Shown piece by piece: positions 17,700-57,255 of a stretch of DNA of 64,000 nucleotides; positions within the stretch are counted from its first letter, which is position 1, and the number at the start of each line of letters is the position of its first letter. The notes beneath the pieces are model-generated. The model saw only the letters and a program-made list of their open reading frames with translations. It had not been told where the DNA came from and made no database searches. A program made the translations under genes and the position numbers. Where the stretch lies: positions 68,299 to 132,298 of the forward strand of contig JAFQQF010000026.1 of the NCBI GenBank assembly GCA_017411385.1, read 5' to 3'. Source of the DNA: Ruminococcus sp. Lineage in GTDB: Bacteria > Bacillota > Clostridia > Oscillospirales > Acutalibacteraceae.

Positions 17700-17767
17700 C
17701 GCTCGCAGAGCGATATCATATCGGAGATATATCATCCGTTGTGATAAGAACGGATATCATTGAAAAA
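17700..17767. repeat. 68-bp direct repeat, copy A (palindrome-rich)
   Basis: CGCTCGCAGAGCGATATCATATCGGAGATATATCATCCGTTGTGATAAGAACGGATATCATTGAAAAA; 67/68 identical to 17984-18051. Confidence 0.95.
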
Positions 17768-17983: not shown

Positions 17984-18051
17984 CGCTCGCAGAGCGATAT
18001 CATATCGGAGATATATCATCCGTTGCGATAAGAACGGATATCATTGAAAAA
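17984..18051. repeat. 68-bp direct repeat, copy B
   Basis: Same sequence as copy A except GTG/GCG at one position; lies 284 bp from copy A. Confidence 0.95.
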
Positions 18052-18084: not shown

Positions 18085-18160
18085 TGGTGGAGACGATGGG
18101 GATCGAACCCACGACCTCTTGAATGCCATTCAAGCACTCTCCCAGCTGAGCTACGCCCCC
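18085..18160 (-). tRNA. tRNA-Ala (GGC)
   Basis: GGGGGCGTAGCTCAGCTGGGAGAGTGCTTGAATGGCATTCAAGAGGTCGTGGGTTCGATCCCCATCGTCTCCACCA; G3:U70 pair, GGC anticodon, encoded CCA. Confidence 0.97.
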
Positions 18161-54210: not shown

Positions 54211-54324
54211 AATCCATTTTCCTTTAATAAAAATCTGAGAACTATTGTACCATAAATATAAAAAAGCCGCAACCATATCCGCTAAATTTTGCAGACAGGC
54301 TACGGCTTAGTTAACAACAACATA

Positions 54325-54801
54325 TTATTCGAAATAAGAAATATACCACTCTGTTATAGCATCAAAATCTGAGCTCATAATGAGGGTTACGAAATTGCCA
54401 TTCTGAGCTACAGAGCACTCATTAACAATAGCAAGAAGCTCGGCAGAATAGCTTGCACACAAATCACGCTGAGAGTTATAGCGGATTTGCAGGGCATCGT
54501 ACACACGCTGAGCCGCCTCCTTATTCACAGCCTCAACCAAAATAATCTCGGTGATATCTGTAGCGGAATTAACTGTGGTTTCTGCGGCAAACTGCTTTAC
54601 ATCAGCAGGAGCGATATTATAATATAGCTCCAAATCATCTGCAGTTTCAAGACGCATCATTTCATCCTCAGAGATTTCGAACTTAAAGTTGATGGAATTT
54701 AGCACCTCAAAAAGGCTGACGTCCTTTGAACCTGTGCATCCTGCAAAAGAAAAAAGTAAAATCATAGAAAGCAAAAGGCTTAATAATCTGAACCTCTTCA
54801 C
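54325..54801 (-). CDS. DUF4358-like lipoprotein
   Basis: GTG start with AAAGGAG RBS; lipobox FAGC; EIILVEA, YSAELL..NGNFVTLIM. Confidence 0.7.
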   Translation of the reverse strand: MKRFRLLSLLLSMILLFSFAGCTGSKDVSLFEVLNSINFKFEISEDEMMRLETADDLELYYNIAPADVKQFAAETTVNSATDITEIILVEAVNKEAAQRVYDALQIRYNSQRDLCASYSAELLAIVNECSVAQNGNFVTLIMSSDFDAITEWYISYFE

Positions 54802-54873
54802 AAAAACCACTCCTTTGTTATATACAACTATATTATACGACAGAAAGTGATAAATTGTAAAGTGGAAGTTAAC

Positions 54874-54903
54874 AAAAAGCCGTCGTAAATACGACGGCTT
54901 TTT
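54874..54903. terminator. Terminator hairpin at the distal edge of the tRNA-Pro insert
   Basis: AAAAAGCCGTCGT-aaat-ACGACGGCTTTTT. Confidence 0.85.
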
Positions 54904-55003
54904 ATGGTAATAGTTGATAATAATGATACGGTTTCGTATGGTTGCATTAGGGTTGCATTGGAGCTGCAACCCTCGGTGAGAAAAATGCAATCCTCGTAAA
55001 AGG

Positions 55004-55845
55004 AGTTAGACAATTTGGAATTTGACTACATCTGCGTTATCTTTTTTATTTCATCAACCATATCGTTAATAACACCAGATATATTTTTTCTGAACATTCC
55101 ATCAAATAATCTGTAAAGATTTGCATCAAAATTATTTGGCAAGATATTGCATTCTTTCGAACAAATGGTTTGCATTCTTTTCTCACCAGGGTGTGTCATC
55201 TCGTTCAGAGCAAAAATAATGTCAAAATAACTTGCGAGGAATTCAGTAACCCTATGATTGACACTTACAAGGTCACCTCTATTCTCTGCCTTTTGTATCT
55301 GCATATCAAATGATGGCAACATACCGCTAAGAAGCTTTAAATTATTAGCAATAATATTCTTTTTTAACTTCTTTGGATATGGAATGCGATATTTTTCCTG
55401 TAACATATTCAGCTTGCCATTCTTATCAAGCACGATTTGGGAGGTTATTAGATTGTGCCACATACAGGTAGTATACCCATTCCATGGTATACAGTCTATA
55501 ACTACAGAGGACACCATTTTTTCAAAATCTTCCATATTTCTATATATAATGTCCATATCAATGCTATCTTTTAAGGTAACATCATCTTCCAACTCCCAAA
55601 AGGAATTGCCAATTTCCATATATCCACAATATTTTTCCAGAATACGTCTTCGTGTGTTTTCGTCAATACTGTCTGTTATATATACATACACATCGTAGTC
55701 CGATTTGGTATCATTTCGTCCAGTTGCTCTTGAACCTCCCAATGCAATTGCTTCCACCTGAGGCAGATGTCCAAGTTCATTAAATAGTTCATTGACATCG
55801 ATTATCATTGCGATTCCTCCTTGTCAAATTCAAGTTTGTCTAACT
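55004..55845 (-). mobile_element. Single-gene cassette bounded by 23-bp inverted repeats, next to tRNA-Pro
   Basis: 55004-55026 AGTTAGACAATTTGGAATTTGAC vs reverse complement of 55823-55845 AGTTAGACAAACTTGAATTTGAC (20/23); repeats abut the stop codon and the RBS; visibly AT-rich ORF. Confidence 0.65.
55026..55808 (-). CDS. Nucleotidyltransferase with DUF4037-like helical C-terminal domain
   Basis: LGGSRATG..SDYDVYVY pol-beta-type GS/DxD motif; helical C-terminus (SYFDIIFALN..HPGEKR). Confidence 0.8.
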   Translation of the reverse strand: MIIDVNELFNELGHLPQVEAIALGGSRATGRNDTKSDYDVYVYITDSIDENTRRRILEKYCGYMEIGNSFWELEDDVTLKDSIDMDIIYRNMEDFEKMVSSVVIDCIPWNGYTTCMWHNLITSQIVLDKNGKLNMLQEKYRIPYPKKLKKNIIANNLKLLSGMLPSFDMQIQKAENRGDLVSVNHRVTEFLASYFDIIFALNEMTHPGEKRMQTICSKECNILPNNFDANLYRLFDGMFRKNISGVINDMVDEIKKITQM

Positions 55846-55846
55846 A

Positions 55847-55874
55847 ATTATAACATAGTTAGGCGAGAATTCAA
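55847..55874 (-). promoter_or_regulatory. sigma-A-type promoter outside the cassette, pointing into it
   Basis: TTGAAT-N16-TATAAT with extended -10 TG; -10 ends 1 nt before the inverted repeat. Confidence 0.6.
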
Positions 55875-55932
55875 TATTAAAAATAAGACCGACCATTCAG
55901 ATACTTCTCGTATAAAAATAATCGGTCTTATA

Positions 55933-56009
55933 TGGTCGAGGTGACGGGATTCGAACCCACGACTTCTTCGTCCCGAACGAAGCGCGCTACCAAACTGCGC
56001 TACACCTCG
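55933..56009 (-). tRNA. tRNA-Pro (CGG)
   Basis: CGAGGTGTAGCGCAGTTTGGTAGCGCGCTTCGTTCGGGACGAAGAAGTCGTGGGTTCGAATCCCGTCACCTCGACCA. Confidence 0.97.
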
Positions 56010-56066
56010 ATATTTAATTGTTGAATAATTATGTATCAACAAAACTTAATATTCTGAAATATAAGT

Positions 56067-56092
56067 TCAGCCCCGAATTGCTTCGGGGCTGA
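56067..56092 (-). terminator. Hairpin between tRNA-Gln and tRNA-Pro
   Basis: TCAGCCCCGAA-ttgc-TTCGGGGCTGA. Confidence 0.6.
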
Positions 56093-56093
56093 T

Positions 56094-56167
56094 TGGCTGC
56101 GGAACTAGGATTCGAACCCAGACATACAGAGTCAGAGTCTGCTGTGCTACCCTTACACAATTCCGCA
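56094..56167 (-). tRNA. tRNA-Gln (CTG)
   Basis: TGCGGAATTGTGTAAGGGTAGCACAGCAGACTCTGACTCTGTATGTCTGGGTTCGAATCCTAGTTCCGCAGCCA. Confidence 0.95.
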
Positions 56168-56265
56168 TCGGAACAACAGATATTATTATATCCGATTCCC
56201 GAAAAAAGTCAATACTATTTTTGAAATTTTTTGAAAAATTTTCTTATTACTTTAAGAGTGTGATT

Positions 56266-57255
56266 TTATGCCTTTTGGGCACGTATATCCTTGCCCAAAA
56301 ATTCAAGTCTGTCACACTCTCCTATTATTCTGGACACAAAGCGCTGTGAATATGTGTCCTGAATTTCTCGAATTGAAAGATTTGTGTTGATAATCACAGG
56401 CTTGCGTTTCAAGATGCGGTTGTTGAAAATATTATAGATTGCGGTTTTTGAATAAGGAGTCTGAAATTCCGTACCCAAGTCATCAATAATAAGCAAATCG
56501 CAATCCGAGAGTGTCTGCATTAAATGCTCTTCTTCGTTGCTGTTGTATTCAAAGTGGGAATTTTCAAGACGTGAGAGGATTGTGGGTGCACTAACATAAA
56601 CAGCATAGTAACCCTTGTTAAGCACCTCATTTGCAATAGCAAGGGAAAGGTGAGTTTTGCCAAGACCAGTTGCACCCTGCATAAACAAGGACCTGCCCTC
56701 CCCTGTGAAGTTTTTTGCATAATTCTTGCAATAATCAAAAATTCTGCTCATTCTTGTGTAGGGAGAAACACCCTCTGTATTAGTGTCATAAGGGTAGTAA
56801 TCAAGGCTGAAAGTATCAAAGGTTGAGAGTCTAAGGGGTGAAAGCTTATTGATTTCATCACATGAGCACTCAATAAGAAGCTTCATAAAGCAATCACAGT
56901 AAAGGGTTTTGCCTTCACGCTCTATGTATGCAGTGTCATTGCAATGGGCACAGGTATACACAGGCTCCATATAATCGGCAGGATATCCTGCCTCCAAAAG
57001 GAGCTGTGCCTGACGCTTCTGTAAATCTGAGCTGATGCCTGCAAGGTGCTCCAGCTCTTCCTTGGCATTACTTCCCTTTAAAACTGCACGTGCTGCACCA
57101 AGGGAGCACGCAGTAAGCTTACGGCTGATTTTCTCGATTTCGGGAATTTTATCGTAAATCTCGTTTGTGTGCCTTTGTGCTGTGGCTTCTGCTTCGCGTC
57201 GTCTGCTGTCCATTATCTGAAATGCAGTATTAAAAATTTCTTTGCTGTATGTCAT
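56266..57255 (-). CDS. DnaC/DnaI-like helicase loader ATPase
   Basis: Zn finger CAHC..CDC; GATGLGKT; LLIIDDLGTE; next to the dnaD-type gene. Confidence 0.85.
   Translation of the reverse strand: MTYSKEIFNTAFQIMDSRRREAEATAQRHTNEIYDKIPEIEKISRKLTACSLGAARAVLKGSNAKEELEHLAGISSDLQKRQAQLLLEAGYPADYMEPVYTCAHCNDTAYIEREGKTLYCDCFMKLLIECSCDEINKLSPLRLSTFDTFSLDYYPYDTNTEGVSPYTRMSRIFDYCKNYAKNFTGEGRSLFMQGATGLGKTHLSLAIANEVLNKGYYAVYVSAPTILSRLENSHFEYNSNEEEHLMQTLSDCDLLIIDDLGTEFQTPYSKTAIYNIFNNRILKRKPVIINTNLSIREIQDTYSQRFVSRIIGECDRLEFLGKDIRAQKA

Follow-up and report, generated by a model that had tools for sequence, protein, structure and literature searches.

The NTase gene and its flanking sites

The window, that is, the whole 64-kb stretch of DNA that was analyzed, lies in the chromosomal core of a Ruminococcus-like Clostridium, and its genes are housekeeping genes. 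By ORF calling and Pfam searches, we identified on the minus strand a cargo ORF of 260 amino acids (55026..55808) encoding a nucleotidyltransferase (NTase) with a Polbeta/NTP_transf_2 N-terminal domain plus DUF4037, whose substrate is unassigned. Only a weak, sub-threshold MntA-like match was obtained against NCBIfam, and a search of the PDB revealed no close solved structure. The sequence of the NTase cassette was found in bovine gut metatranscriptome assemblies.

The ORF lies between inverted arms of 22 nucleotides each, located at 55005-55026 (GTTAGACAATTTGGAATTTGAC) and 55823-55844 (reverse complement GTTAGACAAACTTGAATTTGAC), which match at 19 of their 22 positions; in a repeat search of the window the arm pairing reached 30 nucleotides at 80%. 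A preliminary description of this DNA had reported 23-bp repeats matching at 20 positions; the inverted arms were recovered here with coordinates that differ by 1 nucleotide. The degenerate 22-mer of the arms was present in two copies in the 64 kb, with an expectation of zero from 100 shuffles. As that description had noted, the right arm abuts the ribosome-binding site AAGGAGG (55816-55822, minus strand), which is all that separates site A from the ATG of the NTase gene, and the left arm shares the last base of the TAG stop codon (55026-55028, minus strand). On the basis of the motif and of the comparison of copies, we delimited, both on the minus strand, site A, 5′ of the cargo, as GTTAGACAAACT-TG-AATTTGAC(AAGG) (55819..55844), and site B′, 3′ of the cargo and with the stop codon embedded in it, as (TA)GTCAAATT-CC-AAATTGTCTAAC (55001..55026). 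The AT-richness ascribed earlier to the ORF was borne out by a GC content of 34.4% in the cassette compared to 41.6% in the window. One low-depth X1 contig among the Logan contigs joins 55028 to 55819, an observation that is unexplained.

Just upstream of the right arm, a consensus scan found the previously proposed promoter TTGAAT-16-(TG)TATAAT with an extended -10 box (55847..55874, minus strand; 10 of 12 consensus positions matched). This external promoter-like element was demonstrably kept in the window and in loci L155, L181, L183, L197, and L200, each of which carries a different cargo. The palindrome CTAACTA-N9-TAGTTAG around the -10 box (55840..55862) was also present as described; it can be interpreted as GTTAGAC opposed by a degenerate outer half-site, CCTAAC, and is kept only in the window's promoter variant. 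Since NTase copies elsewhere have different promoters, the promoter lies outside the exchanged unit. From the sequence only, we infer that the cassette is promoterless and would be read from a resident external promoter.

A platform inserted at the CCA end of tRNA-Pro

The cassette is preceded by tRNA-Pro(cgg) (55933..56009, minus strand; ARAGORN, and 65 bits with the Rfam tRNA model), whose 3′ end at 55933 is 88 nucleotides from the arm, within the 100 bp given before. That the slot itself is situated inside an inserted platform of about 1 kb had been missed. The unit of platform plus cassette (54905..55932, minus strand, 1028 nucleotides) was recognized by its absence in relatives and by the 6-bp direct repeat ACCATA that bounds it (TATGGT on the plus strand, 54903-54908 and 55931-55936), and the CCA end of tRNA-Pro(cgg) is its docking point. 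The platform comprises about 250 bp of non-coding DNA in the order hairpin terminator, promoter, site, and 100-nucleotide conserved segment. At its left end, a long hairpin with a T-run behind it (AAGACCGA...TCGGTCTT ATTTTT; 55883..55931, minus strand, detected as an inverted repeat) is terminator-like with respect to the tRNA and is kept at 80-94% behind many different tRNA genes. The conserved segment of about 100 nucleotides, named c100 (54905..55004, minus strand), was delimited by conservation; it contains two to four GGTTGCA/TGCAACC repeats, ends in ...CAACTATTACCA, and is multi-copy in metagenomes (depth of 211 vs. 51). Within it, a consensus scan detected a promoter-like TTGATA-17-TATGGT (54914-54942, plus strand) facing back into the slot. 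A simple intrinsic terminator, also recognized as an inverted repeat (54874..54903, minus strand), probably served tRNA-Pro as its native terminator until the insertion displaced it: in orthologous loci a simple terminator is found right behind the CCA of tRNA-Pro. The promoter of the DUF4358 gene comes after the terminator at 54874..54903. A permissive scan of positions 54300-56300 assigned the arms and c100 to no Rfam 15 family; only two tRNAs were above threshold, and weak matches around the cassette were driven by the terminator.

In related loci the same platform docks behind tRNA-Pro(tgg), tRNA-Ala(ggc), and tmRNA, and whole platforms (about 90 nucleotides upstream and 100 nucleotides downstream) are 85-96% identical between genomes. 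Comparison of the tRNA-Pro locus, which the preliminary description had proposed, demonstrated a presence/absence polymorphism, i.e., the gene is not fixed at this place. The orthologous locus DnaC-tRNA-Gln-tRNA-Pro-DUF4358-PcrA of four related species (L217, L219, L220, and L221) has no platform of about 1 kb, and L215, which is 96% identical, carries the NTase cassette together with an extra GNAT cassette at the orthologous position. The insertion point of this GNAT unit directly follows the CC in site B′ of the NTase cassette, and the platform arm AATTTGTCTAAC is still beside c100.

A family of dyad-symmetric sites flanks unrelated ORFs

Motif searches established a site family with the dyad-symmetric consensus GTTAGACAAAyT-NN-AATTTGTCTAAC of about 26 bp, found in gut Clostridia on more than 120 contigs; the consensus can be extended to about 26-30 bp as (CA)GTTAGACAAAyT-NN-AATTTGTCTAAC(TG). 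Three site patterns matched 93, 15, and 29 genome-contig stretches, some loci being found under several patterns, and the carriers were mostly MAGs of Oscillospiraceae, Faecousia, and Acutalibacteraceae. Most loci were fetched by the site motif itself, which entails an ascertainment bias, and most are MAG or metagenome contigs, in which repeats may give rise to chimeras, as in L213. Viral contigs gave a single match to the site motif, which is therefore not a phage feature, and no match to the cassette was found in the plasmid database PLSDB.

We counted 117 TG-type and 96 CC-type sites. The allele CAAACT-TG is located 5′ of ORFs and CAAATT-CC 3′ of or between them; therefore, the two sites that flank a cassette differ in their centers, which in the same reading sense were TG (site A) and GG (site B) in 64 of 66 cassettes. 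Each flanking site has one strong and one weak arm, and in most cassettes the ribosome-binding site follows site A after 0-17 nucleotides. In arrays, complementarity runs outward from the cores, with a B′-A spacing of 1-165 nucleotides.

The search for the motif elsewhere that had been suggested for this locus showed it flanking about 75 unrelated small accessory ORFs, singly or in arrays. The diversity of cassettes was directly documented: 68 site-ORF-site cassettes represent 59 cargo families, and 85 A sites combine 42 promoter contexts with 75 cargo families. The tRNA-docked platform alone held 16 different cargos in its 16 copies, with figures of 8/8, 8/8, 7/6, and 5/5 in other slot families. 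The repertoire, which includes GNATs, the NTase, P-loop kinases, a methyltransferase, a hydrolase, and VanZ, is integron-like.

Cargo exchange has its boundaries inside the sites

Swapping of cargo was observed in both directions. The NTase cassette (99% nucleotide identity) occurs in at least five unrelated contexts, the same slot was found with other cargo, and four further cargo families likewise recur in unrelated contexts. The identity between NTase copies breaks inside the sites, the cores being 99.2-99.6% identical and the flanks beyond the sites 17-34% identical. A motif found nowhere else, a gene fixed at the locus, and a lack of swapped alleles would each have spoken against the preliminary description; none of the three was met.

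Multi-context copies mapped the breakpoints about 12-14 nucleotides inside the GTTAGAC/GTCTAAC cores, at NN|AATTTG. These comparative data place the exchange boundary in the middle of the arm and not, as had been assumed, at the outer ends of the cores. In site A, only the inner half AATTTGAC goes together with the cargo, the outer half and the center remaining in the context; in site B′, it is the outer half that remains with the platform, the CC and the inner half going with the cargo, as is also seen in L215 compared to the window. Accordingly distributed, the left 14 nucleotides of A in NTase copies are context-dependent, with centers TG, GG, AG, or CC, and both AATTTGAC-AAGGAGG and TAGTCAAATTCC are constant. 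As judged from these alignments of sequence, the flanking sites are hybrids in which the cargo-facing half, AATTTGAC-RBS at the 5′ end and stop-GTCAAATT-CC at the 3′ end, appears to travel with the cargo and the outer half to belong to the resident context. A before/after pair, L156/L185, presents the same type of site with a non-coding REP-like module, which was inserted at an A site with duplication of the site.

Such turnover could in principle be due to homologous or microhomology recombination, e.g., after transformation or conjugation, with the arms being no more than conserved expression signals, i.e., a 5′ UTR/operator on one side and a 3′ UTR/stop module on the other. The position of site A between the -10 box and the ribosome-binding site, the stop codon embedded in B′, and the platforms, which at 85-96% identity might act as homology arms, are compatible with this explanation, which we nevertheless judge quite improbable. 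The NTase contexts share only about 6-14 nucleotides with the window outside the cargo, and this is too short for a RecA-type exchange; moreover, the sites are dyad-symmetric without this being needed for expression, the same sites are used by non-coding modules, and the lineage-specific site alleles (TG, CC, and AG) resemble protein recognition sites.

A non-autonomous transposon, either a MIC or a cargo-carrying MITE with terminal inverted repeats of 8-22 bp and a transposase acting in trans from elsewhere in the genome, would also account for inverted arms around a passenger gene without an enzyme gene. The long terminal inverted repeats of the REP-like element have the same half-sites at their ends, and AATT on both sides of TGAC...GTCA is readable as a 4-bp duplication. 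Against this explanation, no direct repeat beyond the symmetric site was seen at 10 or more independent NTase insertions. Insertions are invariably centered in a site of this family that was already there, and two hybrid sites are formed anew. In addition, the outer halves of the presumed terminal repeats depend on the context, with the inner halves moving with the cargo, and no IS with matching ends was encountered in about 200 loci. We consider a transposon of this kind unlikely.

The arms might instead form a stem between the 5′ and 3′ ends of the mRNA, with a stabilizing or regulating role, as they are complementary at 19 of 22 positions and would be inside the predicted transcript if it started at the usual distance from the -10 box. 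This stem was rejected on the basis of a partner-shuffle test: arms paired with their own partners at 17.2 of 22 positions and with shuffled partners at 17.26, without covariation, and two arm mismatches were conserved in 64 of 66 cassettes. The same arms could be the inverted repeats of a phase-variable invertible segment, and L181, where the cargo has the opposite orientation on the same platform between two TG-centered sites matching at 24 of 26 positions, is a hint in this direction. Nevertheless, neither the motif scan nor the ORF list of the window revealed an invertase gene nearby, no inverted NTase allele was present in the contigs aligned to the window, and, since the centers of A and B′ differ, an inversion of the Hin/Gin type would be blocked. 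Taken as one explanation, the RNA stem or invertible segment has very little in its favor. For the slot, described beforehand as exchangeable or invertible, exchange was substantiated by the cargo swaps and inversion is merely hinted at by L181.

A proposed route of cassette movement

The reading that we consider probable is that the NTase gene is a promoterless mobile cassette lying between two copies of a site and moved by site-specific recombination in trans. The platform is in turn inserted at the CCA end of tRNA-Pro, and the cassette would be expressed from the promoter of this platform of about 250 bp. Conservative site-specific recombination with a crossover in the center of about 6-8 bp (NN|AATTTG) would leave the hybrid sites behind. 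The recombinase may act in trans; putative candidates are tyrosine recombinases, whether Xer-like enzymes of the host or others, and small serine recombinases. The recombination chemistry, a circular intermediate, and the enzyme are inferred.

The TG center of A and the CC center of B′ do not fit a one-step integration of a circle by a site with identical overlap; one has to postulate either that single strands are exchanged or that two exchanges take place (A x A and B′ x B′). Simple integration with identical centers, of the serine type, was rejected, as it does not fit the first cassette behind the promoter with its unlike centers, TG at one end and CC at the other.

In line with the preliminary description, no recombinase was found in the window: its ORF list includes no recombinase-like ORF, and a motif-based scan of the 64 kb, which a very divergent enzyme could escape, detected no ORF with a tyrosine or serine recombinase motif. 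Neighbor clustering and motif scans of about 100 motif loci also found no recombinase recurrently linked in cis, the tyrosine integrases and large serine recombinases encountered being scattered and unrelated to one another. Of the earlier proposal of a slot acted on in trans by a site-specific recombinase, the exchangeable slot holds and the recombinase was inferred, not found. In JGI metagenome contigs, neither the circle or tandem junction of the NTase cassette (...TAGTCAAATT-CC-AATTTGAC-AAGGAGG...) nor an empty platform site (0-30 nucleotides between the arms) gave any match. The sequencing-run data were not raw reads but assembled Logan contigs, in which circles, excision, or inversion are not observable.

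Implications

The capture of gene cassettes, as in integrons and pdif modules, is a main route by which adaptive and resistance genes are assembled and exchanged. A cassette system proper to the abundant Clostridia of the gut could account for the presence of 99%-identical genes for small modifying enzymes, namely acetyl-, nucleotidyl-, phospho-, and methyltransferases, across ruminant-gut families, and, if confirmed, would represent a new mobile pool of accessory genes for resistance surveillance. The new short recombination site, and eventually its enzyme, might serve as a molecular tool, the two natural heterospecific site alleles resembling recombinase-mediated cassette exchange. The non-coding platform that docks at the tRNA CCA is a second, unexplained mobility event. 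Full-text literature searches gave no description of the motif or of the system, which is widespread in ruminant-gut Clostridia and apparently undescribed.

Comparison with known mobile systems

MIC231 of Bacillus cereus and MTnSag1, which carries lnu(C), consist of a passenger gene between inverted repeats without a transposase and are mobilized in trans; such elements have known IS ends and target duplications, and their passengers include nucleotidyltransferase-type genes. A passenger gene between inverted repeats without a transposase is common to them and to the present cassette, which differs in that no cognate IS was seen in the fetched loci, no target is duplicated, the insertion is site-specific and goes into the same palindrome, and the sites are hybrids.

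With tRNA-targeting integrative elements and genomic islands, the platform of about 1 kb shares its placement precisely at the CCA 3′ end of tRNA or tmRNA genes, a short direct repeat as border, and its absence from related genomes. Unlike them, it has no integrase and a backbone of only about 250 non-coding nucleotides, its repeat of 4-6 bp (ACCA/ACCATA) duplicates no tRNA 3′ segment, and it uses many different tRNA species.

The invertible segments of the Hin/Gin type and the Rci shufflons have, like the cassettes, 26-bp dyad-symmetric sites of 12-2-12 architecture in inverted orientation on the two sides of a segment; the inner arm is A/T-rich and the outer hexamer specific. In contrast to them, the central dinucleotides differ here (TG vs. 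GG in the same sense), neither an adjacent invertase nor an enhancer is present, and replacement of cargo, not inversion, was seen.

In integrons, attC sites of 57-141 nucleotides with complementary cores (R″-L″...L′-R′) form the 3′ end of the cassette, and intI, a tyrosine recombinase with an IntI-specific insertion, adjoins the cassette array. The present system resembles them in its promoterless and unrelated single-ORF cassettes, placed in one orientation downstream of a resident promoter, singly or arrayed, and in a cargo made up mostly of small modifying enzymes and products of unknown function. GTTAGAC and GTCTAAC, the 7-bp cores of the window, fit GTTRRRY/RYYYAAC, and the junction of adjacent cassettes, B′ followed by A, can fold into a two-box hairpin whose central mismatches are conserved and whose loop is variable. 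The preliminary wording, integron-like but not an integron, was upheld by the lack of attC architecture and of intI and by the promoter outside the exchanged unit. No intI adjoins the slot, no attC (R″-L″...L′-R′) follows the NTase ORF, the GTTRRRY-like cores are loop-proximal instead of at the base, the inferred crossover is at NN|AATTTG instead of G|TT, and many units have their own promoter module. A classical attC was rejected for this locus, where GTCTAAC is followed by c100 and the terminator, with no partner GTTRRRY and no L″/L′ pairing. Complete integrons have been reported to be absent from Firmicutes, the host phylum (PMC4889954). It is conceivable, and we suggest it only tentatively, that the integron principle was invented independently in Gram-positive gut anaerobes, with an integrase-less platform docking at CCA, ORF cassettes joined via a new two-box site with attC-like folding, and a chromosomal recombinase in trans.

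The pdif modules of Acinetobacter plasmids are likewise discrete modules between inversely oriented, two-armed short sites, without a recombinase gene of their own and with a host recombinase presumed to act in trans, and the same module occurs in different contexts. In both systems, two module types alternate along arrays; in the present one, the ORF modules have inner arms that are weak, and the strong GTTAGAC arms belong to the linker, promoter, or REP modules. As far as a comparison by eye with published dif consensus sequences can show, without binding data, the present sites have no close resemblance to dif (11-6-11, ...TTATGTTAAAT), the arms agreeing at no more than about 7 of 11 positions and the spacing being different. 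The loci are chromosomal in Clostridia and not plasmid-borne as in Acinetobacter, and each cassette consists of a single promoterless ORF joined tightly to its sites. Our best reading is thus a cassette system that is integron-like in its working and built like the pdif modules of Acinetobacter, and that is a member of neither.

Organization of the Cassette Locus

Read on the minus strand, tRNA-Pro(cgg) (56009→55933) is followed by a long hairpin with a T-run (55931→55883), a promoter-like element, TTGAAT-16-TG-TATAAT (55874→55847), and the arm GTTAGACAAACTTGAATTTGAC (55844→55823) of site A, after which come AAGGAGG and an ORF of 260 aa (55808→55026). The TAG stop of this ORF is overlapped by the inverted arm GTCAAATTCCAAATTGTCTAAC of site B' (55026→55005), and a 100-nt segment and a terminator end the order. 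The two arms match at 19 of 22 positions; a degenerate 22-mer recovered only these two in the 64 kb and none in 100 shuffles. The ORF encodes a Polbeta/NTP_transf_2 nucleotidyltransferase (NTase) with a DUF4037 domain, and the rest of the window consists of housekeeping genes. The preliminary description had claimed this succession of repeat, RBS, ORF, stop and repeat with a promoter-like element outside, an AT-rich ORF and the absence of a recombinase. All three were confirmed, the last two by a GC content of 34.4% in the cassette vs 41.6% in the window and by a motif-based scan and ORF list that revealed no recombinase-like ORF in the 64-kb window.

Metatranscriptome assemblies from the bovine gut contain the NTase cassette at high assembler depth, and DNA carry-over is not excluded there. 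One low-depth metagenome contig from sequencing run X1, seen as assembled contigs only (depth 5.9 vs about 52), fuses 55028 to 55819, skipping the ORF and keeping both arms; it may be a misplaced contig from another cassette, because its shorter side measures only 21 nt. Elsewhere, a 68-nt repeat (CGCTCGCAGAGCGATATCATATCGGAGATATATCATCCGTTG.GATAAGAACGGATATCATTGAAAAA) is present twice (17700-17767 and 17984-18051) adjoining tRNA-Ala (18085-18160), and similar 'gatatatcattgaa'-like sequences lie upstream of another slot-promoter family (L093, L147, L170 and L195; L handles denote contig stretches from other genomes or metagenomes).

The Platform at tRNA-Pro

The slot that holds the cargo is part of an insert of 1028 nt (54905-55932), which separates the tRNA-Pro CCA from a terminator that looks like the native one of tRNA-Pro. 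A 6-bp direct repeat, ACCATA (54903-54908 and 55931-55936), bounds the insert, whose backbone has four parts: hairpin terminator, promoter, site and a conserved segment (c100, 54905-55004) with two to four GGTTGCA/TGCAACC repeats, ending in ACCA. The whole hairpin-promoter-slot-c100 platform is an insertion at the tRNA-Pro CCA end, absent from four related species. The backbone was also detected behind tRNA-Pro(tgg), tRNA-Ala(ggc), a tmRNA and the 3' ends of other tRNAs, and the native-looking terminator that comes after it differs from copy to copy. Cassettes in arrays are spaced by this backbone, and platform pieces are multi-copy in metagenomes. In the c100 of L128, all repeat copies are jointly changed to GTTTCA/TGAAAC. 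The most invariant c100 stretch holds, on the opposite strand, a promoter-like TTGATA-17-TATGGT (+ strand, 54914-54942) pointing back into the slot, which would be antisense to the NTase and sense for the cargo of L181, where the platform is as in the window and the cargo is reversed.

Orthologous loci (DnaC-tRNA-Gln-tRNA-Pro-DUF4358-PcrA) were reached via homologs of the neighbouring DUF4358 protein. In L217, L219, L220 and L221 (four species, DUF4358 77-86% identical), just a simple terminator follows tRNA-Pro, and no site, platform or cassette was found at the orthologous locus. L215, 96% identical to the window over 3.7 kb, presents the NTase 3' end, a B'-A junction, an extra 179-aa GNAT cassette and then window-like c100 and terminator. 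The cassette is thus not fixed at this locus. The tRNA-Gln/tRNA-Pro spacer of L217 (2330-2650), L219 (1110-1410) and L220 (2620-2800) contains two or three tandem partial tRNA-Pro 5'-half copies, each with an upstream leader, and in each of L217 and L219 one copy is interrupted by an insert of about 140 nt; the window spacer contains a terminator alone (56067-56092).

A Family of Sites in Gut Clostridia

Scans for exact patterns, with each species represented by one genome, matched 93 stretches with the 22-mer, 15 with the full 26-bp palindrome (GTTAGACAAAyT-NN-AATTTGTCTAAC) and 29 with a promoter-plus-arm pattern, some loci matching more than one. Nearly all were gut MAGs (Oscillospiraceae, Faecousia, Acutalibacteraceae, other Clostridia); a viral collection gave one motif match and a plasmid database none. 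The rule at matched loci is site A, RBS, ORF, stop, site B'. Outside the window the motif thus flanks unrelated ORFs and forms arrays: 68 site-ORF-site cassettes, single or arrayed, with internal lengths of 95-1415 nt, represent 59 unrelated cargo families. One cassette ORF from each of 20 loci was scanned, along with the NTase and the L215 GNAT; this set includes six GNAT acetyltransferases as well as the NTase, two P-loop kinase-like proteins, a SAM methyltransferase, an alpha/beta hydrolase, VanZ, a cyclase, a peptidase S51, DUF4177 and several membrane proteins or unknowns.

The consensus of site A is (CA)GTTAGACAAACT-TG-AATTTGAC, followed by the RBS, and that of site B' is (TAG)ACAAATT-CC-AATTTGTC[T/G]AAC, often with the stop codon within it. 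Two alleles dominate, CAAACT-TG 5' of ORFs (117 sites) and CAAATT-CC between ORFs or 3' of them (96 sites). The Lachnospiraceae array L011 (Agathobacter, 1162-2550) carries a TAAATT-AG allele, its between-cassette sites reading TAAATT-AG-AATTTG. AG centres also lie upstream of 85%-identical NTase relatives in L010, L012 and L013 (Anaeroplasma/Bacillales MAGs), suggesting that the AG-centred sites of L010-L013 are lineage-specific variants. Short contigs whose bins belong to distant taxa (L004, Methanobrevibacter; L133, Aenigmatarchaeota; L159, Bacteroidaceae; L152, Thermoguttaceae) also carry the motif or the NTase cassette. Mis-binning is likely, because L004 and the Lachnospiraceae contig L006 have the same downstream flank.

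Exchange of Cargo and Inferred Position of the Crossover

Swapped alleles were found in both directions. The NTase cores of the window, L001, L002, L004 and L006 are 99.2-99.6% identical in unrelated contexts, their flanks past the sites being 17-34% identical, the random level; four other cargo families also showed the same cargo in different contexts. No two of the 16 slots of window type (tRNA, hairpin, promoter, site) hold the same cargo; other conserved chromosomal slots hold 8, 8, 6 and 5 cargos in 8, 8, 7 and 5 members, respectively, and 85 A sites divide into 42 contexts by promoter and 75 families by cargo. Context swaps, cargo diversity and locus variation support the earlier reading of an exchangeable gene-cassette slot, the recombinase being inferred only. 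A second conserved chromosomal slot, in eight Faecousia-like genomes (L091, L092, L096, L098, L108, L137, L150 and L167), has the promoter TCTTGATTTCTGTGTAGTATGGGAGTATAATTCA and contains a different cargo in each genome; at six or more of the eight loci it adjoins a gene for a Cys-rich protein of 178 aa.

Among the NTase copies, the outer 12 nt and centre of site A vary by context (GTTAGACAAACTTG, GTTAGATAAACTGG, GACAGATAAATTTG, AACCGATAAATAAG, TTCAGACAAATTCC), as does the outer arm of B', and AATTTGAC-AAGGAGG and TAGTCAAATTCC travel with the cargo. The insertion of the GNAT unit in L215 falls directly behind the CC of the B' site of the NTase and leaves the platform arm AATTTGTCTAAC adjoining c100. 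L156 and L185 constitute a before/after pair, in which a non-coding REP-like module was inserted at an A site, leaving two TG sites. From these three sets of breakpoints, every junction therefore joins the left arm plus NN to AATTTG..., and the flanking sites are hybrids. This pattern, hybrid sites without target duplication at the NTase cassette flanks compared, is not the one expected of transposition or of long-homology exchange. We read the junction pattern as the signature of conservative site-specific recombination at the centre of a dyad-symmetric site, with the chemistry inferred from these alignments alone.

Neighbour-ORF clustering and motif scans of the fetched loci revealed no recombinase or transposase recurrently linked in cis, and the predicted NTase circle or tandem junction and the empty platform site were absent from the metagenome contigs scanned. 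A non-coding REP/MITE-like palindromic element of about 200 nt (...AGTTACGCACCGCACCAAAGCCTCCC...GGGAGGCTTTGGTGCGGTG...), ending in GTCTAAC/GTTAGAC half-sites, lies between two sites of the same family in L155 (5950-7050), L163, L179, L184, L185, L093 (3600-3800), L127 and L094; its flanking sites have an identical centre (TG...TG or CC...CC) in the four cases with both readable (L155, L163, L185, L093).

Comparison with Known Systems

Rfam matched only tRNAs and no known RNA family for the sites. An RNA stem was rejected, since arms paired at 17.2/22 positions with their own partner vs 17.26/22 with shuffled partners. Two arm mismatches are conserved in 64 of 66 cassettes. An attC was likewise rejected: nothing complementary follows GTCTAAC in the window, and in arrays the complementarity runs outward from GTTRRRY-like cores. 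As ssDNA, an adjacent B'-A junction can adopt a two-box hairpin of 22 bp, with mismatches in the centre and a loop that varies, and we hypothesize that this modelled fold may echo attC architecture.

Full-text search of the literature found no account of the motif, and Firmicutes have been reported to lack complete integrons (PMC4889954). The cassette system fails defining tests of both integrons and Acinetobacter pdif modules. It resembles integrons in function, with predicted capture of promoterless cassettes behind a resident promoter, but has no attC and, in motif-based scans of the window and the fetched loci, no linked intI. The Clostridia system lacks the plasmid location of pdif modules, and its sites look little like dif by eye, with at most about 7 of 11 arm positions matching and a different spacing, but it shares their architecture of two-armed sites in inverted orientation, module types that alternate and a presumed trans-acting enzyme.
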